From the NCBI GenBank assembly GCA_038087875.1, contig CM075993.1:7380001-7444000 (forward strand): a DNA stretch of 64,000 nucleotides. Direction: 5' to 3'. Under the pieces are notes generated by a model, which made no database searches, was not told the origin of the DNA, and worked only from the letters and a program-made list of their open reading frames with translations. This document shows, one piece after another, positions 17,862 through 43,911 of this stretch. The DNA comes from Malacoraja senta (taxonomy: Eukaryota). The number at the start of each line of letters is the position of its first letter. Position 1 is the first letter of the stretch. The position numbers and the translations under genes were made by a program.

Positions 17862-19718
17862 CTGAAAGAAAAAGAGACTGCTTACAAAAAACCCAATGGA
17901 CTTCTGTAGGAATCTTACTTCCAAGTGCTCTAAATAACGTTACTTTAAAGAAGTTGCAGGAGGGAAATTTATCTCATCGTATAACCGGCTTAAAAAAAAT
18001 CAGATCTTAACAAACATATTGTCAGCAATGTTTTTATACAAACCTAATCAATAATTTTGAGTTTTTTATGTCGATAGTCCAAGTTTGAAATGTTCCTACT
18101 AAATAAATGGGGAGGGCCATCTTGCAATGAACTTAGTTTGAATCAATTAAACTAACAGCAAACATGGAACAAGCAGGATCATATGTGCAAGAAAAAACAG
18201 TGGAAGATTGAGATAGTCAGAGTCGTACAGCATGGATATGGGCCCTTCGACCCAACCCAACCATGCTGGCCAAGATTCTCCATGTAAACTAGTCCCATTT
18301 GCCAGGCTTTGGCTCATATTCCTCTAAACCTTTCCTATCCATGCACCTATCCAAGTATCTTTAGATGTTATAGCACCTGCCTCAACTACTTTCATAGACA
18401 GTTTATTCCATGTACTAATCATCCTCTGTGAAAATGTTGCCCCTCGGGTTCCTTCAATGGTGAGGTGGTCAGAGCCGGTGATGGACTGGGCAGTGTTCAC
18501 AACTTTTTGCAGTATTCTTCGCTCCTGGGCATTAGCATCCAGGGCTCGAGGGCCTTTAGTGGAGGGTGGAGTTCAACACAACATGGAGGTCATTCAATGC
18601 AGATGCCACTGGTTGAAGCATTGGACACCAACAGAGACAGAATGAGTCAAACAGCTTCCTGTGTTGTAAATCCTCAATGATTCAATGTTGCTGGAATCAA
18701 ATGGTGGATCCAGCTTGCCTTCAAAGAAATGCTCTCTAGTTATTTTACCATTCAACTATTTAGTACTTCAGGAAGATTTTAATTCTATCCAATTTATCCA
18801 TTTTGAGAAGCTCAGTGTTTGTGAGACACACGTTGGTTCATGCGGAATTTGCTAAAATTTGAATACCGTTGGGGGGGGGGAAACGTATCCTATTCACCCT
18901 GTTTGTCTCTCTAAGTGTGCCTTAAATTCTTGAGACAGCAATGGCGGGTGAGGCCCAGCTAAAGCATGTCGGGGATGACGCTGGGTTTGGCAGTAACATC
19001 CACACTTGTGGTGGGGTGAACTTGCGTGATATATTTTATTTACAATGGTAATAAAGTCCAGAACTGCATGAGGTGCTGTTCCCCATGGTCAGGGAATGCG
19101 TGCGATCTTGGGCTTTCCCCGGCAGCTCAGTCCTGGTCTTCGAAGGAGGCGGTGTAGTGATCTCAGGCTTCTCCCTGCAGTTCACCCTTGCCTCTAAACT
19201 TGGCGTTGGTGACCTCAGGTTAATCCTGACAGCTCAGCTTTGGGCTTGAAGAGGCGGCGCTTGGCGGCCTCATGTTTATCCTCAGTCTTTTTGTGTGTGC
19301 GTGCGGTCCCTCGTTGACCGTGAGCAGGAAGAGCCATTGGCATCTCAGGCTTGCTCCGGCCACTCAGTCCGGCACCGCATGGGGGGGCTGTCCCTCACCG
19401 TCAGGGCGTGTGTGCGGTGGGGCTGGCCATCTGGGGCTTGTCCCAACTGATACCAAAGATGCTGGGGATTGGCCTCTCCTGGCCAGTCAGCCAGTGACAG
19501 GGATCATAGTGGCATCCAAGGGAGGGGGCGCTATCACAAGCTTCCAACATCAGTTTGACCAAAGGTGCCTGCACAGCTCTGCCTGTCCTCCCCAAATAGC
19601 CATGAACAGTTTTACAGCAGAGGTCCCCAAATGACCATGGCCCCTGCACCTTTTACCCAGTAAGCGAACCCAGACTGTGATATTCTTTAAAGTAGAACAA
19701 GGTGATTATTGATCCCAT

Positions 19719-19862
19719 GTAAGAAGGAACTGCAGATGCTGGTTTAAACCGAAGATAGACACTAAATCTGAAGAAGGGTCTCGACCCGAAACGTCACCCA
19801 TTTCTTCTCTCCAGTGATGCTGCCTGTCCCGCAGAGTTACTCCATCATTTTGCGTCCATCTT
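19719..19862. mobile_element. PLE fold-back mini-element with perfect 16-bp TSD and intact hammerhead-like core
   Basis: TSD tgattattgatcccat at 19703-19718 and 19863-19878. Core CTGAAGA-AGGGTCTCGACCC-GAAAC-GTC at 19768-19795. Confidence 0.85.
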
Positions 19863-19944
19863 TGATTATTGATCCCATTAGCCACATTTGTACAACAATG
19901 TATATTAAACAGTTCCAGTGTATCTTGAAAGCTCACAAATGTTC

Positions 19945-20302
19945 TGGATGTTGGGGGAGTACGGAACCAGGGGTCACAGTTTAAGAATAAGGGGTAATAA
20001 TAATAATACATTTTATTTATATAGCGCTTTTCAGGACTCAAAGTCGCTTAGGCCATTTAGATGAGGAAAAAAAAAATCCCCCAGATAGTTGTGAATCTGT
20101 GGAATTCTCTACCACAGAAGGTAGTGGATGCCAATTCACTGGATGTTTTCCAGAGAGAGTTAGATATAGCTCTTAGGACTAACAGAATCAAGGGATACGG
20201 GAGAATGAGGTACTGATTTTGGATGATCAGCCATGATCATATGAGCTGACTCGAAGGGCCAAATGGACTACTCCTGCACTTATTTTCTGTGTTTTTATGT
20301 TT
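19945..20302 (+). mobile_element. CR1-clade LINE 3' fragment
   Basis: accaggggtcacagtttaagaataagggg...gtgaatctgtggaattctct...tail; interrupted by a short reverse L2-like tail. Confidence 0.8.
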
Positions 20303-20576
20303 CTAAGCAATCTGATCATCAATTGGTTCCAGAAGCACCATGTCCTCCTGCAGTTTGCAATTAGAGCAATTAGAATCAGCACTGCCTTTATTCACCAGTG
20401 AATAGCTGCCATCAGTCATGGCTGAATTTGCAAGGTACACAAGATCAGTCTGGTTTCCGTGGCTGGCAGGAAAACAAAATGACGAATAAGGCAAAGACCT
20501 CATTTACCCCCAATAGGATGTAAATCCCATTCATCCAGTGCTGGCCTTAAGAGGAAGTGGAAGGGGAAACATTTAC

Positions 20577-20749
20577 TGTGTAGGAAGGAACTGCAGATGC
20601 TGGTTCAAACTGAAGATAGACACAAAAAGCTGGAGTAACTCAGCAGGACAGGCAGCATCTCTGGACGGAAGGAATGGGGGTGACTTTTTGGGTTGAGACC
20701 CTTCCTCAGAGATGCTGCTGAGTTACTCCAGCTTTTTGTGTCTATCTTT
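20577..20749. mobile_element. PLE fold-back mini-element with 13-bp TSD
   Basis: TSD gggaaacatttac at 20564-20576 and 20750-20762. Confidence 0.85.
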
Positions 20750-21269
20750 GGGAAACATTTACCGATGCACCTAAAGCATGAGAGCAATAGCCAGACTTAG
20801 GAACTGGCAATCAAGCAGAATGATAAATGCAATCGCAAACATTCCTGCATCATTCATTATCGGGTGACTGGGGTCGAACAACACTAAGTGTCTACCCGGC
20901 TGCCAGGTAAATTGCTTTGAAAATTGAAGCCTTGCTGGAGTGATTAATTCCAAGTGAGGCATCATTTTAAATGAGGCTCTGGTGAAGCGCTGAAGTGCAC
21001 ACGATCGTGGTGACACTACTGCTGACTGTGTACACAGGCTGGGACATGTCAGCACTCTCTCAGCATCCCTGTGCATTCGGGAGTGGTGAAAGCTGACTAT
21101 TGTACCAGCTGCTGGTGGGTAGCAGCATTTGTGGCTGATGCCTCCGCTGGCAAACAGCCGTGCTTTTGTTGCACATTAAAACCTGCACAGTGTGTAAAGG
21201 GCCACCACGTCCCGCCCACCGATCTGGCACTTGCCGCCTTTCTGGGTTGGAGGGCAGCAGGCGGAGTTA

Positions 21270-21755
21270 ATAGACAATAGACAATAGGTGCAGGAGTAGG
21301 CCATTTGGCCCTTCGAGCCAGCACCGCCATTCAATGTGATCATGGCTGATCATCCCCAATCAGTACCCCGTTCCTGCCTTCTCCCCATATCCCCTGACTG
21401 CTATTTTTAAGAGCCCTATCTAGCTCTCTCTTGAAAGCACCTGCCTCCACTGCCCTCAGAGAATTCCACAGACTCACCACTCTCTGAGAAAAAGTGTTTC
21501 ATCGTCTCCGTTCTAAATGGCTTACTCCTTATTCTTAAACTGTGGCCCCTGGTTCTGGACTGCCCCAACATCGGGAACATGTTTCCTGCCTCTAGCGTGT
21601 CCAAGCCCTCAACAATCTTATATGTTTCAATGAGATGCCCTCTCATCCTTCTAAACTCCGGAGTGTAGAAGCCCAGCTGCTCCATTCTCTCAGCATATGA
21701 CAGTCTCGCCATCCCGGGAATTAACCTTGTAAACCTACGCTGCACTCCCTCAATA
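21270..21755 (-). mobile_element. CR1-clade LINE 3' fragment
   Basis: ORF 21416..21790 plus (tattgtc)n tail. Confidence 0.9.
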
Positions 21756-21988
21756 GAGTTGCTCTCTGACTCAGAGGTGTCCACCCTCAAAGAGCTGCTG
21801 CCAGTTTATCGCTGGGAGTGGTGGGTCGCACCAGCCTCTGCTGGCCGCAGCCCAGCTTCTGTGGGCCAGGACCACTCGTCGACAGGCAGCCATCTGACTG
21901 AACCAAACCCAGGGATGGAGCAGTGTCTTCAGTTCAGCCCGGGATTCTGCGGTGGGTGCGGGAGCGACAGCAAGATGGCGAAACAATA

Positions 21989-22267
21989 TGAAGATAGACA
22001 CAAAATGCTGGAGTAACTCAGTGGGACAGGCAGCATCTCTGGAGAGAAGGAATGGGTGACGTTTCGGGTCGAGATCTTTCTTAAGACTCCAGTAAAGATG
22101 AGGTAGTGGGAGCCTGGAAAACAGTTAGTAAAGATGAGTCTGAAGAAGGGTTTCGATCCAAAAAGTCACCCATTCCTTCTCTCCAGAGATGCTGCCTGTC
22201 CCGCTGAGTTACTCCAACATTGTGTCTATCTTCAATTTAAACCAGCATCTGCAGTTCCATTCTACAC
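21989..22267. mobile_element. PLE fold-back mini-element with 14-bp TSD
   Basis: Inverted arms around a spacer of about 50 bp; flanked by atgg(c/t)gaaacaata. Confidence 0.82.
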
Positions 22268-22686
22268 ATGGTGAAACAATACTAATGATTTGTTATTATG
22301 TCACATCTTGAAACCTTATGAAACCTTTGTTTGATTCGTATGGGTGTCAGGGTTTATGGGGAGAAGGCAGGAGAATGGGGTTCGGAGGGAGAGATGGATC
22401 AGCCATGATTCATTGGCGGAGTAAACTTGATGGGCCGAATGGCCTGATTCTGCCCCTGTCACATGAACATGAACCTTATTTCCACAAGATAATGCAAACT
22501 GGCCAATCCACTATTAACTAAATTTAAGATAGACACAAAATCTTCTATCTTCGGTCTATTTTCAGTTTAAACCACCATCAGCAGTTCCATCCTACACATT
22601 AACTAGATTTAGTTCAGTTTGGTTTAGAGATATGGTTTGGTTTGGTTGGAAACAGGGCCTTCGGCCTACCGAGTCCATGTCTACCA

Positions 22687-22812
22687 TTGTTGAAGAAGGA
22701 ACTGCAGATGCTGGAAAATCGAAGGGAGAAGTCTGAAGAACCCGAACGTTGCCTATTTCCTTGCTCCATAGATGCTGCCTCACCCGCTGAGTTTCTCCAG
22801 CATTTTTGTCTA
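22687..22812. mobile_element. PLE fold-back mini-element (subfamily B) inserted in a SINE tail
   Basis: TSD ccatgtctacca at 22675-22686 and 22813-22824. Confidence 0.82.
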
Positions 22813-23292
22813 CCATGTCTACCACTGATCACCTGTTCACACTTCTATGGTATATACGTTAACATCGTTTTATGTTATCCCACTTTCTCTTCCACTCACT
22901 GCACACGATGGGCAATTTTAGAGAAGCCAAATAACCTACAAACCTGGACGGCTTTGGGATGTGGGAGGAAAATTACGCAGTCACAGGGAGAACATGCATG
23001 CACACTCCACACAGGTAACAGGAATCATGGGATACGGGGAGAAAGCAGGAACGAAGTACTGATTTTGGATGATCAGCCATGCTCATAAAGCTGGAAGGGC
23101 TGAATAGCCTACTCCTGCACCTATTTTCTATGTTTCTATGGAACACCTGAGGTCAGGATCGAACCAGAGTCTCTGGTGCTGTGAGGCAGCAAGTCTACCA
23201 GCTGCACCACTATGCCTCCTTTAAACGCATAATAAAGTACTGCATAAATGTGTGGGATAACAACATAAGAGCTGGAATAGGTTATTCCCTTT

Positions 23293-23920
23293 GATGGCAT
23301 GTTGGCCATAACAAGAGGAGTTGAGTATAGGAGCCAAGAGGTCCTTCTGCAGTTGTACAGGGCCCTAGTGAGACCACACCTGGAGGATTGTGTGCAGTTT
23401 TGGTCTCCCAATTTGAGGAAGGACATTCTTGCTATTGTGGGAGTGCAGCGTAGGTTCACCAGGTTAATTCCCGGGATGGCGGGACTGTCACATGTTGATA
23501 GAATGGAGCGACTGGGCTTGAATTTAGAAGGATGAGAGGGCGTCTTATTGAAACATATAAGATTATTAAAGATTTGGACACGCTAGAGGCAGGAAACATG
23601 TTCCCGATGTTGGGGGAGTCCAGAACCAGGTGCACAGTTTAAGAATAAGGGGTAAGTCATTTAGAACGGAGATGAGGAAAAACTTTTTCACCCAGAGAGT
23701 TGTGAGTCTGTGGAATTCTCTGCCTCAGAGGGTGGTGGAGGCCGGCTCTCTAGATGCTTTCAAGAGAGAGCTGGACAGAGCTCTTAAAGATAGCGGAGTC
23801 AGGGGATATGGGGAGAAGGCAGGAACGGGGTGCTGATTGTGGATGATAAGCCATGATCACATTGAATGGCGGTGGTGGCACGAAGGGCCGAATGGCCTAC
23901 TCCTGCACCTATTGTCCATT
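23293..23920 (+). mobile_element. CR1-clade LINE 3' fragment
   Basis: ORFs 23299..23535 and 23630..23836 plus tail. Confidence 0.9.
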
Positions 23921-24724
23921 GATTGCTCCACTATTCAATTACATCCTGCATGATTTTTTCCTTAAATTCAGCACTGCACCAATTCCATAATCCCCTGATT
24001 CCTTTAACACGTCAAAATGCATGTACTTTTCCTCCACACACAACTGTAAAGATTCATCACCCTCTGAGTGAAGAAAATTGTCCTAGATGCTGACCCCTTA
24101 TTACGAGACTGCGATACTGGGATTTAGTACATTAAACCCAACCAAGATAAACATTAAACCTGCCATTTAATTTGTCAAGTCCTGTTCAAAATGTTAAAAG
24201 GTTGTATTATAATCTTAAATATGATTTATGTATTAATCAATATAACATAAAACAAAGTCAAAAATTTATGAGCTGCAAGATTTATTTTCATTTTTTGCTT
24301 TATTGCTTATAATTAGGCGAAATGTTCTGACAAGGTACTTCAAGAGGAATGCTTGTATCTAGGGATTTCTTGTCTTATTTACCTCTGGTGGGAAATATTT
24401 ACAAGTTGGCAAGTGTATGATCCATTGGTAGAATATAACACTCAAGTCAGGTTATTATGTTCTCACACAGAACAGCAAACAAAGTGGGAGAAGTGGGTGT
24501 GCATTTGGGTGAGGCATGGGGAAGGAGGTGTGAGGGGAGCAGGCGAGATTTGGGGGGGGGGGGGGAGATGGAGGGGAAGGAGGCGAGATTTGGGGGGGGA
24601 GAAAAAAGAGGGCTGTTCGGGTGGCCGCCTAAAACAGGAGGATTCATTGTTCATACCACTGCGTTGTAAGCTACCCAAGTGAGGGGGGGGAGGGGAAGGG
24701 GGGGAAGGGGGGAAGGGGGAAACT

Positions 24725-25407
24725 ATTTTCTAGGGTCCCTACCTGGTCGGAGAGGCAGCTTTACTCCGGGCTGCACTTTCGACCAGTTCTCGCGGCTTAC
24801 CAGCGGGCCTGGAGCGGCCTTTCCTGAGGGGACCGACCAGGACCTCGGCTTCGGCGGCGGCACAGTGCTGGAGCGCTATGCGGAGCGGAGCGGGCGATGC
24901 CGTGCCCGGGTCGCCGCGCTGGAACTCCGGTGAGCTGGGACCGCCGGTGAACATCGCGGAGCTGCGGGTCTGTGAAGCGGCCAGCGGCGCTGAACTTTAC
25001 ATCGGGAGCCTGGGATCTCTCGCCGAGATCGCCAGTGGTGGAGCTCCATCCAGCGCGGCCTGTTGGCTTCGGAAGCCGTGGACTCCGGTAAGGAGGCGGC
25101 CGTTCCAGGTGTCCCAAGCCGCTGAGAGGGTTCTCCCGACGTCGGAGCACCATCACCCGGCGAAGAAGGGCCTGAAACATCGGCCCCCGTAGCGGCGACT
25201 GCGGAGGCCTCAATAGGCCCGACTATGGGTGGACATGGGGATAGGGACTGGACTTTGTGCCTTCCCTCACAGTGGGAACCATTGTGGGGGGATGTATTTA
25301 TGTTTTATGTTAAATTTCTTTAATGTTCTGTCTATTTGTGCTGCATGGCAAGACAAATTTCACTGCACCATTTGGTGTATGTGACAATAAATGTCCTTTG
25401 TCCTTTG
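24725..25407 (+). repeat. GC/CpG-rich interspersed element with gtgacaataaa + (ccttt)n-type tail
   Basis: Its 3' part (25194-25407) is homologous to 57792-58016. Confidence 0.6.
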
Positions 25408-25512
25408 TAATCCCTTTCCAAACGGATAGCCAGACAACTTAGTAAACTGAAATAGAATTAGGTGCAAGGAGTAACAGAAACTGCCTAAAAATAAGCAACG
25501 ATATGATTCCCC

Positions 25513-25739
25513 GTGTTTAAGAAGGAACTGCAGATGCTGGAAAATCTAAGGTAGACAAAAAGTGCTGGAGAAACTCAGCGGGTGCAGCAGCATCTATGGA
25601 GCGAAGGAAATAGGAAATAGGAAATAGGCAACGTTTCGAGCCGAAACCCTTGGGTTTCGGCCCGAAACGTTGCCTGTTTCCTTCGCTCCATAGATGCTGC
25701 TGCACCCGCTGAGTTTCTCCAGCACTTTTGTCTACCTTT
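25513..25739. mobile_element. PLE fold-back mini-element (subfamily B) with 13-bp TSD
   Basis: gatatgattcccc at 25500-25512 and 25740-25752; near-perfect inverted arms. Confidence 0.87.
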
Positions 25740-26974
25740 GATATGATTCCCCTCTCCCTCACCAACAGGATTTTATTTTTGTTTATTAATACATGTGTTG
25801 TTTTGTCAGCAGCTCTAACTTGATTCAAGTTGTTTGTATCTTCCGTTCCCGGCTTCTCATCAAATAAAATAGACCGCTAACACATGATATTCAGCCGGGT
25901 GTACGTTCTATTCTTGAATTTATGACGTAGGCCCTGCCTATCCGTAGGATACCGATGCCCGACTTGTGGACACACCGCTCATAGTTTGTGGGCATTTGGG
26001 AGACCTTGTCGGCATCTTCTCCTGGATGGAAACGGGGCATTTCCGAGAGCCTTCTCGTCCCACCACCTTCAATCCGCAACGGTGGGGGTCTGGGTGGGGG
26101 GGGCCAAGCAGCAGACTTTCAATGATTAGATTAGATTAGATTTTATTTGTTGTCATTTGAACCCAGAGGTTCAAACGCAATTTGGTTTCTGCAGTCATAC
26201 AAACAAGAAGAAGAACCAAGACACAACACAATTTACACAAACATCCATCACAGCGAATCTCCTCCTCACTGTGATGGAAGGCAAAGTCTTATCTCTCCGT
26301 TCTGTGTAGGAAGGAACTGCAGATGCTGGTTTGAACCGACGATAAGACACAAAAAGCTGCAGTAACTCAGCGGGACAGGCAGCACCTCTGGAGAGAAGGA
26401 ACGGGTGACGTTTCGGGTCGAGACCCTTCTTCAGACGTCAAAATTATGTTCTTACTTTTACCAGTTTTGACAAAATGATATTCCCGCCCTACACTCTGCA
26501 GTATTCCCTTTCCAATTGGATCGCCAGGTAACTTAGTAAAATGAAAAATAATTCGGTGCGAGGTGTGACAGAAACTGCCACTAACTCGCACGCAGACTCA
26601 CTTGGCCACTCACTGAGTCAGAGAGGCGGGCTGGCAGCTGCTCTTCCCACGCCCGCTCCCTCTCCCATCACCACCACCTCTGTGACCATCTCCCACACAC
26701 ACTTTTTAATTAATTTCCGACTTACGAACAGTTCTCAGGAATGGTGGGGCTACATGCTGCCACCATGGCGGAGTTGCTGCTTACAGTGCCAGAGACCCTG
26801 GTTCGATCCTGACTACGGGATGCTGGTTTAAACTGAAGATCGGCAGAAAAAGATGGAGTAACTCTGCGTGACAGGCAGCATCTCCGGAGAGAAGGAATGG
26901 GTGACGTTTCACCTTCACTTCCTCTCACCTCATCTACTGCATCTGGTGTTCCCGATGTGGCCTCCTGTACATCA

Positions 26975-27152
26975 GATGGAGCAACTCAGCAGGACAGGCA
27001 GCATCTCCGGAGAGAAGGAATGGGTGACGTTTCGGGTCGAGACCCTTCTTCAGACTGAAGAAGGGTCTCGACCCGAAACGTCACCCATTCCTTCTCTCCA
27101 GAGATGCTGCCTGTCCCGCTGAGTTACTCCAACTTTTTGTGTCTATCTTCGG
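26975..27152. mobile_element. PLE fold-back with back-to-back hammerhead-like cores
   Basis: Palindrome centre cttcag-a-ctgaag at 27054; CTGAAGA..GAAAC-GTC is readable on both strands. Confidence 0.85.
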
Positions 27153-27204
27153 AGACACTGGAGAACAGGTTAAGAACAGAGTTCAGTAACTAAATAGGAA
27201 TGGT

Positions 27205-27852: not shown

Positions 27853-28849
27853 TAAGTCTCCTGAGGGTATAGGATCCTCCAAGTAGAACGTGTGGTAAAA
27901 AGGTAATTTAGTTTTAGGTTAATCACAAGGTCTTACTGATTGAATGCTGGAGCAAAGCTGTAGCTGCAGGCTCCCCTCCTGACGTAGAAATGAGAAATGA
28001 TTAATGTCTTGTGCTCCTGGGCTGCACACTTACTTACTACACACAGGTTAAGTACAGCTGTACTCAGTGTCTGTAATCTGTACTCCTGTCTAACAGTTAC
28101 ACAAACATTGCCCAGCTAAACCCCAAGGCCATAGGATAAAGCAATTACTTTTTTTTCTCCAAAAAATGTGTAATTAAGCAAAGACATCAATCATTTGTAA
28201 TTTTATCTACAAACCGCTGAAGTGACCTCGTTATCGTAAGGACTACAGCAGATTTACATGAATAGTTTTTGAGGATGAATGGAAAAAAATGAGAACGTGA
28301 TCCTGAAATTTAACAGACACGTCAAACGTCTTGCAATATTATCCAATTCTCAAAAGTCACTGTTGCAATGAACTCGTAGAGACAGAGTCTAAGAGCAGGC
28401 ACAGAAACAGGCCCCTCAGCCCAACTTGTCCAAGCTGATCAAGGTGCCCCATCTAAACTAGCCCCATTTGCCAGTTTGGCCCACAGCCCTCGAATCCTTT
28501 TCTATCCAAATACCTTTAGACTAAAGTTGCTGAGATACAGCGCGGAAACAGGCCCTTTGGCCCACCGAGACCGCACCGACCAATGATCACCTTGTACACT
28601 AGCACTATCCTACACACAAGGAGCAATTTACAATTTTACCGAAGCCAATTAACCTGCACGTCTTTGGACTGTGGGAGGAAACCGGAGCACCCGGAGAAAA
28701 CCCACGCGGTCCACAGGGAGAACGTACAAACTCCATACAGGCAGCACCCATAGTCAGCAACTATACCGCTATGCCTGTCCAAATATCTTTTACATGTTGT
28801 TATCAAACAATAATAATTGTCATCAATAACTGTAGAGGCCTTAAACATT

Positions 28850-29060
28850 GTGTTTAAGAAAGAACAACAGATGCTGGAAAAATCGAAGGGAGACAAAAAT
28901 GCTGGAGAAACTCAGCGTGTGAGGCAGCATCTATGGAGCGAAGGAATAGGTGACGTTTCGGTCGAGACCCTAAGCGTATCGACCCAAAACGTCACCCTAT
29001 TCCTTCTCTCCATAGATGCTGCCTCACCCGCTGAGTTTCTCCAGCATTTTTGTCTACCTT
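28850..29060. mobile_element. PLE fold-back mini-element with 14-bp TSD
   Basis: aggc(c/t)ttaaacatt at 28836-28849 and 29061-29074. Confidence 0.85.
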
Positions 29061-29477
29061 AGGCTTTAAACATTTATTGGATAAGACAAAAACAAGGAGT
29101 ACTGTATTAAAGTATTGAAAGACGCTGCCTCACCCGCTGAGTTTCTCCAGCATTTCTTTTGTCTACTTTCGATCCTAGCCCTTCCCATTGCCAGTGTGAG
29201 GCGAGTCGCAAACTGGAGCAACAGCATTTCATAATCCACTTGGGTAACTTATAACCCAACGGTATGAATGTTGAATTCCCCAAATTTAGGTAATCTCTAA
29301 CTCAGTCTCAAAGGGTCCCTACCCGAAACGTCCGAGAAAGGAATGGATAGGCAACGTTGAGTCAGCACTTTTCAATCCGCCTCTCCCCCAGTCCGAGGAA
29401 GGACCCCAACCCATAAAATGGTCAATTCCCTCCACAGATGCTGCCTAATCTGTTGAGGTACTCCTGCGCTTACAACA

Positions 29478-30248
29478 TGATACGATAGAACTTTATTTAT
29501 CCCAGGAGGGAAATTGGTCAGCCAACAGTCGTAAAACACAAGATACGTGAAACATGAAATTAAAATGACGAGCGGAAAGGATTGAGGACGTGCAAAGAGG
29601 GGGTGGGGGGGGGGGGGGGGTAGTCAGTCAGTCTACCCCATGACAGAAGGGGGAGGAGTTGTACAGTTCGATAGCCACAGGAAAAAAGGATTTCCGGTGG
29701 AGTTCTGTACTGCATCTTTTTTCCCTGTAACAGGCTGAAAGAGCGGGGCCTCCTCAAAATGTACAGCCGGCTCTGTCCCTTCTTCTACAGTGCCTTAGCG
29801 TTCCTGAACCAGTCCTGTTTACTGGTAGACAAAGGTGCTGGAGAAACTCAGCGGGTGCAGCAGCATCTAAGGAGCGAAGGAAATAGGCAACGTTTCGGCC
29901 CGAAACGTTGCCTATTTCCTTCGCTCCTTAGATGCTGCTGCACCCGCTGAGTTTCTCCAGCACCTTTGTCTACCTTCGATTTTCCAACATCTGCAGTTCC
30001 TTCTTAAACAACAGTCCTGTTTACTGTCCAGGTACACTCCAAGGTACTTGCGCTCCTGGGTAAACTGCACATCCACACCATTGATGGAGAAAGGGGACAG
30101 GGGTATTCCTCTCCTCCTTCTAACTCCTTAATCGTGTTGGAGTTGAGCTGCAGGTGAGTCGGCCCACACCACTCAACAAAGTCGTTGACTACACCTCTGT
30201 ATTCAGCTTCCCTTCCCTCACTGATGCAGCCCACAATTGCAGTCATCC
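29478..30248 (-). mobile_element. Rex1/Babar-clade LINE fragment, internally deleted and interrupted
   Basis: DDT-like AIVGCI-EGREAEYRGVVNDFVEWC-LQLN segment (ORF 30004..30303), a KYLG region and an RLY-LRR region. Confidence 0.75.
29825..30011. mobile_element. PLE fold-back mini-element inserted in the Rex1 fragment, perfect 15-bp TSD
   Basis: cagtcctgtttactg at 29810-29824 and 30012-30026. Confidence 0.9.
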
Positions 30249-30779
30249 AAAATCTTGGTGTTTTGCTCAAGATTCCAGCATCTGCAGTTTGTTGTGTCCC
30301 CATATCTAATGCTTTCCTGGCCTGACTCTCATCCTTTCTCCACTATAGATCACCTCATTCAATCTGGTCTACCCTGTCATATGCAAGCAGGCAGTCACTC
30401 ATTACTCCTTGGCTCCTTCTATTAACTGAGGAGTTGACAGACGGCTGTAGAGGGCAAGTAAGGGTATTCTTAAAGCAGAGATTGATAGGATTTTGATTAG
30501 TAAGAGCGTCAAAGGTTACGGGGAGACGGCAGGAAAATGGACAAATTGCTGGAGTAACTCCAGGGGGACAGATAGCATCTCTGGATAGAAGGAATGCGTG
30601 ACGTTTTGGTTCGAGACCCTTCTTCAGACTGTCTGGAGAGAAGGAATGGATGACACTTTGGGTTGAGACCCTTCTTCAGACTAGGACAGGAGAATGACAT
30701 AGGACAGTCTGAAGAAGGGTCTCGACCCGGCCCGTCGCCCATTCCTTCTCTCCAGAGATGCTGCCTCACCCGCTGATTT

Positions 30780-30985
30780 AGTCAAGTCAAGTCACAATTA
30801 TTTCTATAGCACATTTAAAAAAACAACTCTCGTTGGCCAAAGTGCTTTACATTGGTGGAGGTACTAACGTTATACAACAGTGGTTCATAGATTAAGTACA
30901 TACATAAATACATACATATAGCCCTCGCTCAGAGGATGTCAAGAAAAGCTTGAGAGTAAAGATGAGTTTTAAGTCTCGACTTAAG
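30780..30985 (-). mobile_element. L2 3' tail inserted in a PLE repeat
   Basis: Reverse complement of the L2 tail with (ttgac)n end. Same family at about 32843-33084, 48716-48887 and 62753-63016. Confidence 0.8.
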
Positions 30986-32254
30986 TTACTCCAGCATTTT
31001 GTGTCTACCTTCTTCAGACTTAGGCAAGAGAATGAGGCTGAGAAGGAAACTATGGATCAGCCATGATTGAATGGCGGAGCAGACCTGATGGGTCGAATGG
31101 CCTAATCCTATATTTTACGAACTTATGATTCAAGTTTAAGAACCCCTCCCAAAAACTCCTCTGCTTTCCACATGCTGCAATGCTTTAAAAAAATCCTCCC
31201 TGACCAAGGCCTTTCAATAACGCGTTCGTCAGTGTGGAATCTTAGGACACCGGGATATTTAGAAACGTAGAAAGCACCAGTGAGATAACACAAAGCGACT
31301 ATTCTGTGGAATCAGGGCACGGCATCATACCTCGGAACCATCGGTGGCAGGAGATAAGCCTTGATTTGAGAGGAAGTACAGAAAAATCTACCAGACAACT
31401 TCCATAAAGCTGGATTAGCAGGAGTAATGTCCTGCAGCAAAGGCTGGGAGATTATTTAACATATAGCAGTTGATAACAAAATGCCATTTGCGAGTTCAGA
31501 AGCTGCACTTCATACAGTACTCCCTTTATTGGTCAAATATTAAAGTATTCCGAGTCCCTTCTATTTTAATGTGCCATTTGTAATAACCAGCAATCCATCC
31601 AATTCCGGGATCACTTACAAATTCTATTTACATCTTCTCATGCAATTCATGTGCTTCAAGAATACATGTTGAATTCATACTGAATTCAAGGAGTCCTTAC
31701 ATGTCGTTGTCACTGAGAAGACCTTTCAGAATGGACAGACATGGGGCATAGATCAGTGTACAGATTATATTTCCAGAAGGAAAACAAAGAGTACTGTTCA
31801 GTTTGGAAAGGTCAGCATAGAAATGATTAACACTGTGTATTTGACTTTTTTTTGCTCCTGACTTCATGGAGAAGTTCATTTATTCACCATTACTCAGTGG
31901 AAAATGTGGAGCTCTTAATGACCCCCATTGGCCAATTAAGTTGCACAGACAGGCACAAAGTGCTGGAGTAACTCGGCGGGTCAGGCAACATCTCTGGAGG
32001 AAAAGGAATAGGTGACGTTTCGGGTCGGGACGCTTCTTCAGACTTTTAAGTTGCACAGATGCATCGTTCCATTCCAGGAATATTATGACCAGATTTCCAA
32101 CTGGACACAAATTTAGCAGCAAGACAACTTTTTACTCTGCATTTTTAGGCAGCAGCATAGGATACTGAGCAATTTAAACTGCCAAACTTAATTGTGTAAG
32201 CACGATTAATTTGATTATAGGGATGCACAAGTATAACACAATTTGTTATTATTT

Positions 32255-33457: not shown

Positions 33458-34131
33458 GCATGCAGGTACAGCAGGCAGTGAAGAAAGCTAATGGCATGTT
33501 GGACTTCATTGTGAGAGGATGAGCGTTTAGGAACAAGGAGGCCGGCCCTACTGCAGTAGTACAGGGCCCTGGTGAGACCGCACCTGGAGTATTGTGTGCA
33601 ATTTTGGTCTGCTAATTTGAGGAAGGACATTATCGCTATTGGGGGAGTGCAGCGTAGGTTCACCGGGTTAATTCCCGGGATGGCGGGACTGTCGTATGAT
33701 GAAAGAATGGGTCGATTGGCCTTGTATTCGCTGGAATTTAGAAGGATGAGAGGGATTCTTATAGAAACATATAAAATTCTTCAAGCATTGGACAGGTTCA
33801 ATGCAGGAAAAATGTTCCCGATGTTGCAGGATCCCAGAGTTACTCCAGCATTTTGTGTCGACCGTCACAGTTTAAGAATAAGGGGTAGGACAGTTAGGAC
33901 TGAGATGAGGAGACATTTTTTCACCCAGAGAGTTGCGAATCTATGGAATTCTCTGCCACAGAAGGCAGTGGAGGCCAATTCACTGGAGGTTTTAAAGTTA
34001 TATTTAGCTCTTAGGGTTAACGGAATCAAGGGATATGGGGGAAAAAGCAGGAACGGGGTATTGATTTTAGATGATCAGCCATGGCTCGAAGGGCCAAATG
34101 GCCTACGCCTGCACCTATTTTTCTATGTTTC
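33458..34131 (+). mobile_element. CR1-clade LINE 3' fragment
   Basis: ORF 33572..34159. Confidence 0.9.
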
Positions 34132-35427: not shown

Positions 35428-36090
35428 GAGGCTTTTGGCACGTTGGCCTTCATCAGTCAGAGCATTGAGTATAGAAGTTGACAGGTCATCTTGCAGTTAT
35501 ACAAGACGTTGGTGAGGCCGCATTTAGTACAATGTGTTCAGTTCTGGGCACCATGTAATCGGAAAGATGTTGTCAAGCTGTAAAGGGTACAGAGAAGATT
35601 TACGAGGATGTTGCCAGGACTCAAGGGGCTGAGCTATAGGGAGAGGTTGAGCAGGCTAGGACTCTTTTCTTTGGAGCGCAGGAGGATGAAGGGTGATCTT
35701 ACAGAGGTGTACAAATTCATGAAAGGAATAGATCGGGTAGACACACAGAGTCTCTTGACCAGAGTTGGGGAATCGAGAACCAGAGGACATGGGATTAAGG
35801 TGAGGGGAGGGGGGAGGGTGGAGATTTAATAGGAACCTGAGGGGTAACTGCTTACATACAAAGGGTGGTGGGTGTATGGAACAAGCTGACGGAGGAGGTA
35901 TTTGAGGCAGGTACTTTCTACAGGCAATGTCTAAGAGACATTTAGTCAGGTACGTGGATAGGATAGGTCTAGAGGAATATGGGCCAAACGCTGGCAGGTG
36001 GGATTAGTGTAGATGGGATATGTTGGTCGTTGTGGGCAAGTTGGGCCGAAGGGCCTATTTCCACACTCTATGAATCTACTCTATGACTCA
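35428..36090 (+). mobile_element. CR1-clade LINE 3' fragment, second subfamily carrying the SINE-type tail
   Basis: ORF 35608..35829 (LSYRERLSRLGLFSLERRR); tail tgggccgaagggccta..tctatgactc. Confidence 0.88.
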
Positions 36091-37219
36091 CTATTGTTTA
36101 GGCATGAGACCAACATTTGTAAGTCCATCTTGGGAATGATTCCCCTAAATTCTAATACTCCACCACTGTAGTCTTGCCTATAATTCTGGTCTCCTGCACA
36201 TCCCAAATTTTGATAAGCAAATGAATGACTGCCAAAATTAGACAGGACAAAAATGCAAAGACAAATTGCAGATTCATGAGTTCATAAGTGATAGGAGCAG
36301 AATTAGGCCATTTGGCCCATCAAGGCTACTCCGTCATTCAATCATGGCTGATCAATCTCTCCCTCTTAACTCCATTCTCCTGCCTTCTCCCCATAACCCT
36401 TGACACCTGTACTAATCAAGAATCTATCTATCTCTGCCTTAAAATTATCCATTGACTTGGGGGGGCTGAGGGTGCGGGTGAAGGTGGGGGTGGGGGGTGG
36501 GCTGAGACGGTGCGGGTGAAGGTGGGGGGGTTGAGAGTGCAAAAGATGCATCTGTGATAGGGTGCAGGACAAGAGAGAGAGAGAATGACATAGGTGTATG
36601 TGGTTGTGCTTGCTGAGGGAGGGTGGTTTAGTCATCACAGTTGGTGAGGCTGGAGGTGACATGGACAGACAATACGGAACCAAGAGGAGAAAAACGTTGC
36701 AAGAACTGTGAGATACAAAAATGTTGCAGTTGCTTAAAATTTGAAATAAAAGAGAACAGTGTAAATATTCAGCAGGGTCATGCAGCAATTGTAAAGAGTG
36801 AAACCGTTTATGTTACAGCCAGTTAATCTTGTTTCTGAACTGGCTGGAAAGGTATAAACTGGAAAGGCTGGATATTTGAAATTGTTCCATTTAATGTTGA
36901 GTCATGAGAGCTTAATGTGCCTCATTGAAAGACGAGGTCACAAGAGACCGCAGAGGCTGGTGGGTGTCTGGAACAAGCTGCCAGAGGATGTAGTTGAGGC
37001 TGGGATGATACCATCGTTTAAGAAACAGTTGGACAGGTACATGGATAGGACAGGTTTGGAGGGTTATGGACCAAGCGCATACAAGTGGGACTAGGGTAGC
37101 TGGGACATTGTTGGCCGGTGTGGGCAAGTTGGGCCGAAGGGCCTGTTTCCACACTGTATTGCTCGATGACTTTATGCTGGAATCTTGAGCAAAAAACAAA
37201 GTGCTGGAGGTATGCTGCT

Positions 37220-37437
37220 CCTGTCCCACTTAGGAAACCTGAACGGAAACCTCTGGAGACTTTGCGCCCCACCCAAGGTTTCCGTGCGGTTCCCGGAGGT
37301 TTTTGTCAGTCTCTCTACCTGCTTCCACTACCTGCAACCTCCGGCAACCACCAGCAACCTCCGGGAACCGCACGGAAACCTTGGGTGGGGCGCAAAGTCT
37401 CCAGAGGTTTCCGTTCAGGTTTCCTAAGTGGGACAGG
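37220..37437. mobile_element. Harbinger-type MITE with perfect 82-bp inverted arms
   Basis: 37220-37301 is the exact reverse complement of 37356-37437; terminus CCTGTCCCAC. No clean TSD. Confidence 0.85.
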
Positions 37438-37817
37438 GGCGGGCGGGTCAGGTAGCATCTGTGGAGGGAATAGACAGACATTGATTTAGACAGCAGTAGG
37501 ACCCAAACCTGAAACATTCCCTCACACAGATGCTGCCTGACCTGCTGAGTGCCTTGTTTGTTGCAAGGTGAAGTACTGTTCCTCAAGCTCTCATTGCTCT
37601 CTTTTGGAACAACTAGAAATGTCAGGAAATACGTAGCATTAAGGCCACATCTGTGGCAAGAGAATCAGAGCTAATGTTTCAGGTCAAAGACCCTTCGACG
37701 GAACCGGGAAGGAGACAAAAGAAGCTTGTTAAAAACTGCAGGGCGGGAGGATTGGACAAATCCTGGATGAACATGGGGATAAGTTATAATAACAATGAGT
37801 GAATGGAAGTACGTTTA

Positions 37818-38112
37818 TACTTTAGAGATACTGTGTGGAAACAGGCCCTTCTACCCACAGAGTCTGTGCCCACCCAGCGATCACCATGTACACCAGCACT
37901 GTTCAACACACTGGGGACAACTTTACCATTTTTACCGAAGCCAATTAACCGACAAACCTGTACGTCTTTGGAGTGTGGGAGGAAACCGGAGCACCTGGGG
38001 AAAGCTCACGTGGTCACAGGGAGAACGTACAGAGAGCACCCGTGATCAGGATTGAACCTGGGACTCCGGCGCTGTGAGGCAGCAACTCTACCGCTGTGCC
38101 ACCGTGCCGCCC
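37818..38112 (-). mobile_element. HE1-like V-SINE, full length
   Basis: Head gggcggcacggtggcacagcgg on the reverse strand. Confidence 0.88.
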
Positions 38113-38371
38113 GTAATTAGAGAGTGAGAACATAACAGAAGGAACAAGGAACTGCAGATGCTGGAAATTTGAGCAAAATACAAAGTGCTGGAGGATCTCA
38201 GTAGGCCAGGCAGCATCTGTGGAGGGAATTGATAAGCAAAGTTTCAGGTCGGGACCCTTCTTCAGACAGATGATTGCCACAGTTGCAAAATGCAGATATT
38301 GCTTCAGTACAAGTTCTTGTTCAGTTGCCTACTGCTTTAATTCCCCATCCTACTTGCACTTTGCAGACTAA

Positions 38372-38660
38372 AGGGGCTGTCCCACTGCGGCAACCTAATT
38401 GGCGAGTTTAAAAGTGTTTGTCCTCGACTCATACTCGCGGCATGGTGGAAATGAGGCCCTAGGAGGTCTTTGTAACTCTCCTTCATGCTCGAGAGTAGTC
38501 CCCGCGTACTCGAAGCCTCAACTAGGTCGCGGCGTCTTTTTCAACATGCTGAAAAATGCCAGCGAGTAAAAAAGGGTCGCCATGGGAAAAAAAATCAACA
38601 TTTTTTTACTCGTAGGTTTAGTCGAAGTAGGTCGTAGTAGGTCGGCATGTTAGTCGTAGG
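38372..38660. mobile_element. Harbinger-type MITE left part, truncated
   Basis: TAA + AGGGGCTGTCCCAC; interior related to the 9541 copy. Confidence 0.7.
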
Positions 38661-38698
38661 AGGCGGGTTCTCAGGATGCTTTCAAGAGAGCTAGATAG

Positions 38699-39079
38699 CA
38701 AAGATCCTATAGATAGACCAATCCTGCTAAATGCAATGGGCTGACGTGTAGTACGCAACGGAGCGGAACGTGGGCCTTTTTTTCATCCATTTCCGTAACC
38801 GGACCCGACTCGCAGTGTAATCAACGTTGCGGGGGAACAGTTTGTGCTAATAAATTCAAATTCTGAAAATGAGGAGAAGATATTTACCAAATAACTTTTA
38901 TTTTTACGAGGATGTTTCCGTAACCGGCTTCCGTCTCCGCACTAGTATCCTATGGGATCTTTGGTGCGGAGATGGAAACCGGTTATGGAAATGGGGCCTT
39001 AAATTACCCATGAATCTGCCCATGACCGTACTACGTCTTTTTCGTCGAGTGGACTATCTTGCTCGCTATAGGATCTTTG
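38699..39079. mobile_element. MITE with 14-bp TIR CAAAGATCCTATAG and 8-bp TSD (P-like or hAT)
   Basis: TSD ctagatag at 38691-38698 and 39080-39087. Excision restores the CR1 tail agagagctagatagggctctt. Confidence 0.88.
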
Positions 39080-39409
39080 CTAGATAGGGCTCTTAAAAAT
39101 AGCGGAGTCAGGGGATATGGGGAGAAGGCAGGAACAGGGTACTGATTGGGGATGATCAGCCATGATCACATTGAATGGCGGTGCTGGCTCGAAGGGCCGA
39201 ATGGCCTACTCCTGCACCTATTTTGTTCTTTTTTCTTAATAGCTTGATAGCTTAATAGTTTTATTTGAATTGTCTGTTTATGTTATTGAATTTTGCATTT
39301 GTTAATGGTGAAGAATGGGGGTAGGACTTGACAAGCATAGGCTTCTTCCTATCCCTTTTCGAACGAGTCTAATGTGCATTATGTTGAAATTGGCTTTTGA
39401 TTTTTTAAT

Positions 39410-39537
39410 TTATGTATGTACATATATGTTATGTATATGTGTATGTGTGTATATGTGTATATGTATGTATGTATATATGTACATGTATATGTATGTATGT
39501 GTGTATGTATTTATGTATATATATATGTATATATATA
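39410..39537. repeat. (TA/TG/TATG)n microsatellite inside a probable LINE 3' UTR (about 39223-39630)
   Basis: Simple repeat; the host segment ends aataaaa...(catt)n and splits a CR1 tail. Confidence 0.8.
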
Positions 39538-39974
39538 ATTTTCCTTTATTTATTATTCATTTTCATCTTTTCTTTTCTTCTTTTTTTTAATCGTTCGAAA
39601 TAAAAAGATATCATTCATTCATTCATTCATTGTCTATTGTCTATAACACAGAACTAGTGCAAATCGGTGATCGATGGTCTACGTGGACTTGGTGGGATCG
39701 AAGGGCCTATTCCATGCTGTATCTCTAAAACTAAAAGGTAGCAGGATTGAGCCACTGTTAGCTTTGAAAACCAGCATGATCACTTTAAAAGCAAAAGTTG
39801 CCAAATGGAATTCCACTTGGGTAAATAAATATTGGTAATGTCAATAGTAGGAAAGACTACAATAAAGGATGTAATAGCAGAACATGAAAGACATAAGAGG
39901 ACTAACACGCTATAAAAGTTTTTTAACTGTATCTCGGTACATGTGACAATAAACTAACTAGACTAATGTATACG

Positions 39975-40123
39975 TTTAAGAAGGAACTGCAGATGCTGAA
40001 AAAATCGAAGGTAGATAAAAATGCTGGAGAAACTCAGCAGGTCGAGACCCGAAACGTCACCTATTCCTTCGCTCCATAGATGCTGCCTCACCCGCTGAGT
40101 TTCTCCAGCATTTTTATCTACCT
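39975..40123. mobile_element. PLE fold-back mini-element with 16-bp TSD
   Basis: tagactaa(t/c)gtatacg at 39959-39974 and 40124-40139. Confidence 0.85.
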
Positions 40124-40541
40124 TAGACTAACGTATACGGGATGTTTTGGTCAGCGTGGACAAGTTGGGCCGAAGGGCCTGCGTCCATGTTGTATGACTC
40201 TATGACTCAGCTTTGCAGCCTCCTTATCGTCTGCACAACCTGCTTTCCCACCTCTCATTATGTGATCGATCACCAGTCTGCTGTTCCAAGCCCCCAGCAC
40301 CAATCCATATGCCCCACTGTCCGTTACAACTTGCCAAACGAAGAATGAACCATTTGTGCCTATTCTGTTTCCTGTTAGCCAGCCAATCTTCTGTGCAGAC
40401 AAAAATGTTACCACCTATACCACAAGCCTTTATTTTCTACAATGTTGATACCGTACCTCACCTTCTGGATATCCAAGTACAGTGTCTTCACAGGTTCCCT
40501 TAAAACCTAGAGCACATTACGTCTTTATACAGCCAGTCTAA

Positions 40542-40755
40542 AGGGCCTGTCCCACTTTCACGACCCAATTCACGACGTCTGCCGAGTTTGCCCTTGACTC
40601 ATACTCGCAGCATGGTCGTCACGAGGTCGTAGGAGGTCGTAGCAGGCCGTGATGCTAGTCGTAGGTACTCGTGGCATCAAGTAGGTTGGTGCGTTTTTCT
40701 AGCCTGATGAAAAATGTCCACGAGTAAAAAAGGTCGTGAAAATGGGACAGGCCCT
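40542..40755. mobile_element. Harbinger-type MITE with TAA TSD
   Basis: TAA-AGGGCCTGTCCCACTTTCACGACC ... GGTCGTGAAAATGGGACAGGCCCT-TAA. Confidence 0.88.
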
Positions 40756-40835
40756 TAAATTGGTCATATATGATTTTCCTTTTGCAAACCACACTGACTT
40801 TGGACAATTATTACGAGCCTTTGTGGCCAAGCTAA

Positions 40836-41369
40836 AGGGCCTGTCCCACGAGCATTCGACTGCATGCAGCTAGCGCGACCTAACGTGGTCGCGCTAGCCG
40901 TGCGGCCTCGCGGGGCCAGTCCCACTTCGATCCCCGGAGCCGCATGGAGTTGTGTGGAGCTGGTCCCGACATCGCGCGAGGCTCCAAAAAACTGAGTGTT
41001 AAAAAATTCCGCGCGGCAACGGCCTGCCGGCCCGCTGCCGCATGGAGGCCGCACGCACCGCCTCGACACCGTACGTAGCATCTTGACGCCGAACGCAGTG
41101 TCTTGACGCCGTACGCAGCCTCTTGACGGCGTACGCCTAGCACGTGGCGTTGCACGGTGACGTAATCGCCCGACGCCGTGCGACGTCCAAATTCAGTCGG
41201 CCCGCCTCCTGCCCAGCTGATTGGTGAGTATGATGTCGGGACCAGCCCCGCACAACTCCAGACGGCTCCGCGGTTGGAAGTGGGACCGGCTCCGCGAGGC
41301 CGTATGCCTCAAGCCACCACGTTTGGTCGCGCTAGACGCATGCAGTCGCATGCTGGTGGGACAGGCCCT
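40836..41369. mobile_element. Harbinger-type MITE with TAA TSD, CpG-rich, long imperfect inverted arms
   Basis: TAA-AGGGCCTGTCCCAC ... GTGGGACAGGCCCT-TAA; arms extend over roughly 130 bp. Confidence 0.88.
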
Positions 41370-41758
41370 TAAGACTCTAATATTTAAAAGACAGATTGGA
41401 CTTCAAGGGTACAGGGTAGTGACTAAAACAGGACAACTCTTGTGTACAGACTCAGTAGGGTCTACTGTCTTACACTCATTAGCATGATGGTGCCAAATGT
41501 ATATAGTAGGGTTGTCACTGAACTGAATGCGACAAAAGAGAATTTGAGTTTAGTTTATTGTCACGTGTACCAAGGTACAGGGAAAAGTTTTTGTTGTATG
41601 CCAACTGGTCAGCGGAAAGACAATACATTATTACAATCGAGCCATCCAGTGTAATTTCACTGTAGACACAAAATGCTGCAGTACCTCAAAATGCCTTGCT
41701 GGAGCATCTTTAATAATAGCTTTCAACATTTTCCTGTGACAGATGTTAAACTAATTGC

Positions 41759-41966
41759 TGGTAGACACAAAATGCTGGAGTAACTCAGCGGGACAGGCAG
41801 CATCTCTGTTGAGAAGGAATAGGTGACGTTTCAGGCCGAGACCCTTCTTCAGACTGAAGAAACGTCACCCATTCCTTCTCTCCAGAGATGCTGCCTATCC
41901 CGCTGAGTTACTCCAGCATTTTGTGTCTACTTTCGATTTAAACCAGCATCTGCAGTTCTTTCCTAC
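41759..41966. mobile_element. PLE fold-back mini-element with 13-bp TSD
   Basis: ttaaactaattgc at 41746-41758 and 41967-41979. Confidence 0.85.
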
Positions 41967-43911
41967 TTAAACTAATTGCCTTCTAGTTTCCTGCTTTCGG
42001 TCTCCCTCAGTTTTTTTTAAAAAGGAGTTACATTTGCTATTTTCTGGATCACTCTGAATCTAGAAAAATTTGGACAATTAATACCGGTACAACTATCTCA
42101 GCAACCGCTACTTTTAAGACTCGGTGATGAAATCCACCATGACCCAGTGATTGTCAGCTTGCAGCTCCAAATGACAAGAAACGACACAGCTGGAAGCAGC
42201 AAGGCAACTTCACTTCATTATTCCGATATTTCCAAATGTCAAATATATTCAGAACTGATCAATCTCAAAAGCTTTTTTACAGCATGGCAAAGATAGAGAC
42301 AGGGCTTTGCCATCTCTCACCTGTTTGCAAAATTGCATAGACAGGAGCTGTACTGGTTCACCTATTACATCGACCCAAGCCCCATCTCCCCACCAGGCTC
42401 TACAGTAACACCTCCACCAGCGAACCTGGCCTTCCAGATCTGGTGATGGTAAGTGTTGACGTAAGCAGCACATTCCATGTGAGAAAACTCCGGACAACAG
42501 ACTACACAATCCCCTGAAGCCTCCAGGAGAATTGGGTAGAAAGGTTTGAGGGGGAGTGAGTGGCAGGAAAAATGGTTGCAACTTCCTCTCTCTATCCATC
42601 AGTCCTGCAAATCACTGTGTTCTCAATAATGCCATGAAGTTCCAATCATGTAGTCATGAGCTGCATTGAAGCAGCTCCCTCAGCCCATCTTGTCCACGCT
42701 GACCAAGTTGGCATTCTGGGCTTGTTCCATTTGCCAACATTTGGCCCATTTCCCTTTAAACTCTTCCTGTTTGTGCAAATGTTTGATGTACCAAAATGCT
42801 ACACCTCACACTTGTCAAAGTTAAATTCCATTTGCCATTCCTTTGCCCGCCTTCTCAACTGATCTAGATCGGGCTGTATAAGTAGATGTCATTTGCAAAT
42901 TGACTATCAATGTTAACTGTGTTGTCACCCAAATCGTTAATGTAGATAATAAACAACAGTGGCTACAGCATCAACCTCTGTAGCACACCAGGCTTCCAAT
43001 CACATAAACAATCCTCCACAACTACCCATTAACTCCTTCCTCCAAGCCAATTCTGAATCCAATTGGCTGGATCACCTTAGGTTCCATGTGATCGAATCTT
43101 CCAGACCAGCCTACCTTGTCAGAGACTATTTTCTTGAGTGGGGGGACCTCATTGAAACTTACCGAATAGCAAAAGGCCTCGATAGAATGAAAGTGGAGAG
43201 GATGTTTCCACTAGTGGGAGTCAAGGACCAGAGGCCACAGCATCAAAATAAAAGGACGTACCTTTAGAAAGGGAGAAGGCAGGAGAATGGGGATAATCGA
43301 ATGTCGGAGCAGACTCGATGTAAGAGCACCCGGAGGAAACAGGGAGAATGTGCAGATTCTACATAGACAGCACCCGGGATCAGGGTCCAACCCTGTCTCT
43401 GATGTTGTGAAGCAGTAGCTCCAGCAGCTGCGCCGCTGTGCAGCACTTATTTAAGGTCAAGTGTTACCTAACATGGGAAATACTGCTCCCCACCATTTCA
43501 GCTTCAAAAGTGTGGGCAGTGACATAACTCCTCGCAAACAGCGGATTTCAACAACACGCATGCAATGGAGACATTCAGAGGGTCAGCAGGTCCAACTAAT
43601 GATAGACCTGGAGGGTATGAGTAATGCAACAACAGTCCCTCTATGCATCCCTTTCACAGAAAGCCCCGCGATGCATGGGTTTTCAAACAGGTAATCACCC
43701 AAAGGCACAATACAGAGGGATGGTACACATTTAGAACAGCTACATTTGGATGAGAATGATGAGGGTTTATTCTGACAGGAACTCTTCATCTTTCACTAAA
43801 AGGAAAGTTCAACAGTAAGTATTAGATTGCCAACTCAGCTGATTAATCTGCTGACTCCTTCCAAACAACTTTGTAAGTTCTTAGTACCATCATTATATTC
43901 TTTAAACTCAA

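Follow-up and report, generated by a model that had tools for sequence, protein, structure and literature searches.

Short inserts that lack an open reading frame (ORF) and consist of two inverted arms of one repeat recur about once every 4-5 kb in a 64,000-bp window of the genome of the skate Malacoraja senta (GenBank assembly GCA_038087875.1, contig CM075993.1, positions 7,380,001 to 7,444,000). These fold-backs are almost certainly insertion products of a Penelope-like element (PLE), of which the repeat is the terminal repeat (pLTR). The best explanation is that they are extremely 5'-truncated PLE insertions, each made anew at integration, and we lean slightly towards a two-primer mechanism in which both target strands prime reverse transcription, one at each of two internal start sites. 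All counts below refer to this single window, and coordinates are positions within it.

Fold-back inserts and their target duplications

BLAST searches with five queries derived from the window, with hits merged into loci, place the repeat at 53 loci covering 6446 of 64,000 bp (roughly 10% of the window), a figure that includes older diverged relatives. When two native single arms are used as references, 73 arm matches are obtained; among arms no more than 200 bp apart there are 19 head-to-head pairs versus 3 tail-to-tail pairs. A clear duplication of 12-16 bp flanks ten of the head-to-head pairs and a degenerate one flanks four, while five have none. The first two groups are the 14 duplication-flanked inserts referred to throughout; their duplications run from 11 to 16 bp and are not of fixed length, and variation at the inner junction gives insert lengths of 126 to 279 bp. 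The first-pass annotation of this DNA had listed eight such inserts with locus-specific direct repeats; all eight repeats are present at the positions and lengths it gave, six of them perfect and two with one mismatch (28836/29061 and 39959/40124), and each encloses two inverted arms of one repeat.

Chance is excluded as the source of the duplications at head-to-head pairs. In a strict search of the flanks, 9 of the 19 pairs score at least 12, as do none of 342 permuted flank pairs; a tenth pair (43898) scores 10, which is also the highest permuted score, reached by one of the 342. A more tolerant search adds the four degenerate duplications (8997, 49053, 52198 and 55568), with scores of 5-8. 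The insert at 22675 sits in a short interspersed element (SINE), and its duplicated 12-mer is single-copy in 5/5 aligned, uninterrupted paralogous SINE copies, so it is a true target duplication; automatic BLAST of flanking sequence had returned paralogous empty sites in 0 of 16 cases, this one being found later by alignment.

Two fixed outer ends

We number arms on the ORF strand from the C of CTGAAGA. The 3' ends of arms longer than 40 bp are bimodal, with 27 of 61 at +85 to +99 and 22 of 61 at +120 to +132 (49 of 61 together). In all 14 duplication-flanked inserts one arm ends at +91 to +97, the short site, and the other at +122 to +131, the tail site; the offset of 30-40 bp, about 35 nt, is the "tail" of published Penelope elements, and it is never present in the short-end arm. 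The earlier description, in which one arm runs to a fixed end and the other is truncated at variable points, thus holds for the first arm but not for the second: the outer end of the latter falls within 7 nt (+91 to +97) in 14/14, and it is the inner junction that varies. The motif given there as the fixed end is absent from two ORF-linked copies, both of which stop at the short site without a tail. The 14 inserts, to which no strand is assigned, are as follows.

8997-9247: subfamily B; duplication degenerate, about 14 bp, with one indel (by visual inspection)
19703-19878: subfamily C; 16-bp duplication; tail arm spans only +130 to +81, short-end arm 0 to +95
20564-20762: subfamily C; 13-bp duplication; full tail arm, short-end arm cut back at its inner end
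21975-22281: subfamily C, absent from the first-pass list; 14-bp duplication (1 mismatch); pyrimidine-rich spacer of about 46 nt on the short-end arm
22675-22824: subfamily B; 12-bp duplication; inside the SINE
25500-25752: subfamily B; 13-bp duplication; centre at the base of hammerhead stem II
28836-29074: subfamily B; 14-bp duplication (1 mismatch); near twin of 43898
29810-30026: subfamily B; 15-bp duplication; 75-bp perfect stem; two arm-private alleles; centre on a native palindrome
39959-40139: subfamily B; 16-bp duplication (1 mismatch); tail arm ends at +61
41746-41979: subfamily C; 13-bp duplication; centre is the TCAG-N-CTGA palindrome; tail arm without stem II
43898-44133: subfamily B, beyond the range first reported; 12-bp duplication (1 mismatch)
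49053-49300: subfamily C; degenerate 14-bp duplication (3 mismatches)
52198-52428: subfamily C; degenerate 15-bp duplication (3 mismatches); three rare alleles common to both arms
55568-55752: subfamily C; degenerate 11-bp duplication (1 mismatch)

Single arms are present too, of both types, each with its own duplication and each starting at the edge of the hammerhead-like motif described below. Two pairs are symmetric, one short/short and one tail/tail, and neither of these has a duplication.

803-957, plus strand: single arm with tail, from the hammerhead edge; 14-bp duplication (1 mismatch)
31936-32059, minus strand: single arm without tail, from the hammerhead edge; perfect 14-bp direct repeat
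7529-7719, no strand assigned: symmetric pair, both arms short-ended; no duplication; nested in an inverted-repeat element
50897-51166, no strand assigned: symmetric pair with a tail on either arm; duplication absent; subfamily-diagnostic sites differ between the arms

Isolated arm pieces of 23-29 bp ending at the short site were also seen (33835-33862 and 30984-31012), one of them inside a CR1-like repeat and without an evident duplication at either.

Link to a Penelope-like element

The first-pass annotation had tied the repeat to a PLE through coding remnants with a GIY-YIG endonuclease domain, and the tie is sound: two minus-strand remnants run from the end of the ORF through a stop and a pyrimidine-rich spacer into the repeat. 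A whale shark protein combining reverse transcriptase (RT) and GIY-YIG regions (P0017; Pfam GIY-YIG 23.2 bits against a cutoff of 22.6, RVT_1 partial) aligns by tblastn to 61276-60841 (E 4e-33) and 55143-54871 (E 1e-24), each immediately upstream of the repeat, and five other fragments in the window align to it as well. The closest protein relatives of the remnants are skate gene models.

54617-55143, minus strand: 5'-truncated Penelope-like remnant with the C-terminal part of GIY-YIG, a stop, a 3' untranslated region and the pLTR to the short site
60636-61276, minus strand: 5'-truncated, frameshifted Penelope-like remnant with a CX4CxxC linker, GIY-YIG domain, 3' untranslated region and the pLTR to the short site
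11124-11367, plus strand: GIY-YIG fragment running straight into a subfamily B arm, which has its end at the short site
7263-8194, minus strand: canonical layout, with an inverted tail arm, then 3' untranslated region over about 145 nt, then a short-end arm; no clear duplication
26819-27152, no strand assigned: complex insert with an inverted arm, about 66 nt of GIY-YIG coding sequence and then a fold-back; no duplication found

In the 60636-61276 remnant the CX4CxxC linker precedes the GIY-YIG motif, and a CX2-5CxxC linker in that place marks the Neptune and Nematis clades (PMC8557442). Judged from these sequence features, the repeat is the pLTR of a PLE, and the source element is an endonuclease-bearing PLE that the linker motif would place as Neptune-type. 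The GIY-YIG coding fragment between pLTR arms at 26908-26973 suggests template jumps within the element RNA. An older Penelope-like body at 61285-62201 (minus strand) is broken up by an opposite-strand single arm at 61461-61563 and, at its 3' side, by the younger 60636-61276 copy. A pattern scan of metagenomes gave 26 loci, none matching beyond about 26 bp, which we treated as chance.

[quoted passage not shown] That reading is hardly credible, and we rejected it: duplication length varies between 11 and 16 bp, the termini are unequal in 14/14 inserts, with about 35 extra nt at one end, and the same sequence occurs both as duplication-flanked single arms and as the 3' end of GIY-YIG remnants. 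The first-pass view that these are products of Penelope-like retrotransposition and not DNA MITEs is borne out.

A hammerhead-like motif at the inner edge

The repeat begins with CTGA-N-GA; after an additional base come a 4-bp stem capped by a 4-nt loop, then GAAA and then a minimal helix III that is palindromic. Among 17 intact cores, stem II has 4/4 pairs in 14 and stem I has two contiguous pairs in 11. For the minimal hammerheads of Penelope pLTRs, PMC4209133 gives an extra base before stem II as typical and a 2-bp helix I as known; by sequence the skate motif fits this class, and we refer to it as hammerhead-like, a candidate ribozyme. A search of the window against Rfam returned no match at the gathering score and no hammerhead, with a single weak hit, irrelevant here, in 60600-60900. 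Single arms show no folding advantage over shuffled sequences.

Ribozyme cleavage was considered as the origin of the fold-back centres and rejected, as the arms retain the core and none begins at the predicted cut (+29). Just upstream of the core in ORF-linked copies, the sequence TCAGTC at -4 to +1 resembles what we take to be the consensus of an initiator element; its position coincides with the commonest inner end of the arms.

Centres and sister arms point to formation at insertion

The centres cluster at this motif, lying on the native TCAG-N-CTGA palindrome at -4 to +4, at the base of stem II or on stem II itself, often with small microhomology deletions, and in 14/14 inserts at least one arm extends to +23 or less. 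TCAG-N-CTGA is the centre at 9141, 27055, 41855 and 49193, and the stem II palindrome at 29899. The former is found in both subfamilies, B and C, with the middle base supplied by either arm, and must therefore have arisen more than once.

Both arms belong to the same subfamily in all 19 pairs. In the 16 pairs with enough overlap for a test of sister arms, 12 rare alleles are common to the two arms, in 7 of the 16 pairs, versus 0.18 per pair in 554 cross pairs, so each hairpin derives from one source. That the arms of a copy should be closer to each other than to other copies is only partly true: 14 of the 16 pairs are closer than the subfamily median and 2 are not, but the sister is the nearest relative of both arms in only 6.

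One might suppose that the pairs arose as two independent insertions or as recombination products, later homogenised by gene conversion. The pair at 50897-51166, whose arms differ at subfamily sites and which lacks a duplication, fits such an origin, yet for the class as a whole it is very improbable. A single duplication encloses both arms in 14 of 19 pairs, and in the 10 inserts that allow both measurements the divergence between arms (39/706) is similar to, and not significantly below, that between duplication copies (10/139; p 0.43), so later homogenisation is not needed.

The inserts at 28836 and 43898 belong to one subfamily, measure 211 and 212 bp, have a tail variant in common and are distinguished at the centre by a single base. 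Their near-identity speaks for the idea that some hairpins are non-autonomous masters copied whole by the Penelope machinery, which we nevertheless consider improbable, though it is conceivable for this pair. The remaining centres differ, a single centre recurs in B and C with its middle base from either arm, insert-private alleles occur in both arms of the insert concerned, and a hairpin RNA copied from one end would leave the far end free to vary. For most inserts, then, the differing centres, the recurrence of one centre in two subfamilies and the rare alleles shared by sister arms uphold the earlier proposal that the hairpin is created at insertion.

A proposed double-priming mechanism

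In the two-primer mechanism, to which we give slightly better than even chances, the element protein would nick both target strands in a staggered cut. Of the two free 3' ends, one would prime from the tail site, near +130, and its partner from the short site, near +94. Each complementary DNA (cDNA) would extend toward the pLTR template's 5' edge (about -4 to -1) or end before it, and the two short cDNAs would be joined via short palindromes or microhomologies near the ribozyme, with repair filling in the duplication. The tail site would be present only in the 5' pLTR of the transcript, so that tail arms stay short, and priming at the short site of the 3' pLTR could continue into the ORF. The extents of the arms bear on this scheme. 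In 6 of 14 inserts (19703, 22675, 39959, 41746, 52198 and 55568) the tail arm is too short to have templated its sister, and the reverse holds in 1. Continuation into 3' untranslated sequence, called where at least 70% of 50 nt are pyrimidines, is seen in 6 of 19 short-end arms but in 0 of 10 tail arms extending as far as the hammerhead edge. An Anolis element is reported to cleave and extend both strands in vitro, from two internal starts that bound the tail (PMC11167929).

The chief alternative needs a single primer: the cDNA would snap back at a native palindrome and copy itself, endonuclease resolution would set the second outer end, and later deletions in the palindrome would leave unequal inner ends. 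We think this possible but on the unlikely side. It suits the centres that lie on native single-arm palindromes, both TCAG-N-CTGA and stem II, and the rare alleles common to sister arms, and its two main steps have been proposed for Penelope elements, self-priming at palindromic junctions in PMC3846280 and endonuclease resolution of the tail in PMC8557442. However, snap-back requires that one arm contain the other, and the 6 of 14 inserts in which neither arm does so favour two primers. Moreover, an end at the short site is also seen where there is no fold-back at all, in the ORF-linked copies and in a single-arm insert, as suits a priming site, and the in vitro starts are reported to bound the tail (PMC11167929).

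Several points weigh against the favoured explanation. The asymmetry tests are weak (6 versus 1, p 0.125; 0/10 versus 6/19, p 0.057), the 3' untranslated region is judged by pyrimidine content and tied to an ORF in only 2 of 6 cases, and later deletion within a long palindrome could shorten one arm. In vitro, start sites did not differ between the strands (PMC11167929), so strict one-of-each pairing is not predicted. The four degenerate duplications have scores that fall in the tail of the permuted distribution (of 992 permuted pairs, 53 score at least 5 and 7 reach 8) and were accepted solely because they abut both insert ends. The shortfall in sister-arm proximity noted above belongs here as well. 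Pfam scans of 5 fragments from the window gave no match, and the window holds no intact element, only a 47-codon RT-region fragment (56933-57073) and decayed pieces. All of this evidence comes from one 64-kb window.

A more specific version of double priming, in which the two target ends always use different pLTR start sites and the run-off cDNAs are joined at the ribozyme edge, would make these inserts an in vivo record of coupled asymmetric priming; we regard it as plausible, at a little less than even chances. If true, a single step would account for inverted pLTR, tail and target duplication alike, and elasmobranchs would carry a very large class of MITE-like hairpins, a few of them perhaps copied on as units. 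Many tiny, duplication-bounded copies in one genome offer a cheap statistical test between twin priming and snap-back as routes to Penelope inverted terminal repeats and tails.

Genomic setting

Four minus-strand coding exons of a casein kinase I gamma-like gene lie in the window (53599-53558, 50081-50010, about 17868-17695 and 7169-6936). Three are 96-100% identical to a skate protein, the third exon at 98% over 52 residues. All eight inserts first reported lie in the 32-kb intron between the exons at 50081-50010 and about 17868-17695, where the fold-backs place long double-stranded stems.

GC-rich elements with terminal inverted repeats starting AGGGCCTGTCCCAC or similar lie at 7288-7841, 37217-37440, 40832-41373 and 45678-45958. 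These do look like true DNA MITEs, presumably Harbinger-like. The first of them, 554 bp long, splits the short-end arm of the Penelope copy at 7263-8194 and itself contains the symmetric Penelope hairpin. A 138-codon frame at 58138-58554 (plus strand) resembles what we take to be the restriction-like endonuclease end of a non-LTR (non-long-terminal-repeat) retrotransposon.

Comparison with known systems

Inverted pLTRs, a tail and a target duplication are given as general Penelope features in PMC8557442 and PMC8969392, and in rotifers, according to PMC3846280, inverted pLTRs come with a 31-bp tail, 8-10 bp duplications and palindromic head-to-head junctions. Endonuclease-bearing (EN+) PLEs as described there (PMC3846280; PMC8557442) share with the skate inserts 5' truncation, head-to-head inverted pLTRs, a one-sided tail of 30-40 bp, short target duplications, palindromic inverted junctions, a C-terminal GIY-YIG and a hammerhead-like motif in the pLTR. 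Most skate copies differ from them in being just two pLTR arms (126-279 bp), and the skate duplications, at 11-16 bp, are longer than the 8-10 bp described for rotifers. The novelty implied by the first-pass annotation therefore falls away: inverted pLTR, 30-40 bp tail, target duplication and palindromic junction make up an insertion signature already described for Penelope.

The Poseidon element PAc of Anolis likewise has two internal starts that bound the tail, lying some 110-120 nt beyond the point where hammerhead stem II begins, and its insertion does not need ribozyme cleavage (PMC11167929); in the skate, no arm starts at the predicted cut. PAc belongs to the Poseidon clade, whereas the skate element has the CX4CxxC linker of Neptune/Nematis type, and inverted arms and target duplications do not come up in the portion of PMC11167929 consulted. 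Minimal Penelope hammerheads share the core, the extra base before stem II, the palindromic minimal helix III and the occurrence in opposite-strand pairs, which in Schistosoma pLTRs lie 100-700 bp apart; in the skate, by contrast, stem I is only about 2 bp and the two motifs meet or overlap at the fold-back centre (PMC4209133). Non-LTR retrozymes, which carry type I hammerheads, are likewise non-coding Penelope pLTR derivatives, but they form head-to-tail tandem arrays (10.64898/2026.07.22.740005), whereas skate pairs are head-to-head with target duplications. The only tandem arrangement in the window is one short piece at 30541-30681.

In the twin priming of L1, both target 3' ends prime on the element RNA, and the single duplication that results encloses an inverted segment; each cDNA there copies its own stretch of the RNA, and the position of the second start varies. 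In the skate, unlike L1, the arms cover the same pLTR and both start sites are fixed. Our literature search, which did not extend to Dfam, Repbase or subscription papers, turned up no report of Penelope fold-backs lacking ORFs in skates, and no report that links twin priming to pLTRs.

Inserts of this kind may be mislabelled as MITEs or as hairpin RNA genes. The skate fold-backs are the published Penelope insertion signature at its shortest, and what they add to it is a strict pairing of one short end with one tail, together with an arm geometry that makes twin priming and snap-back testable against each other on a skate genome.

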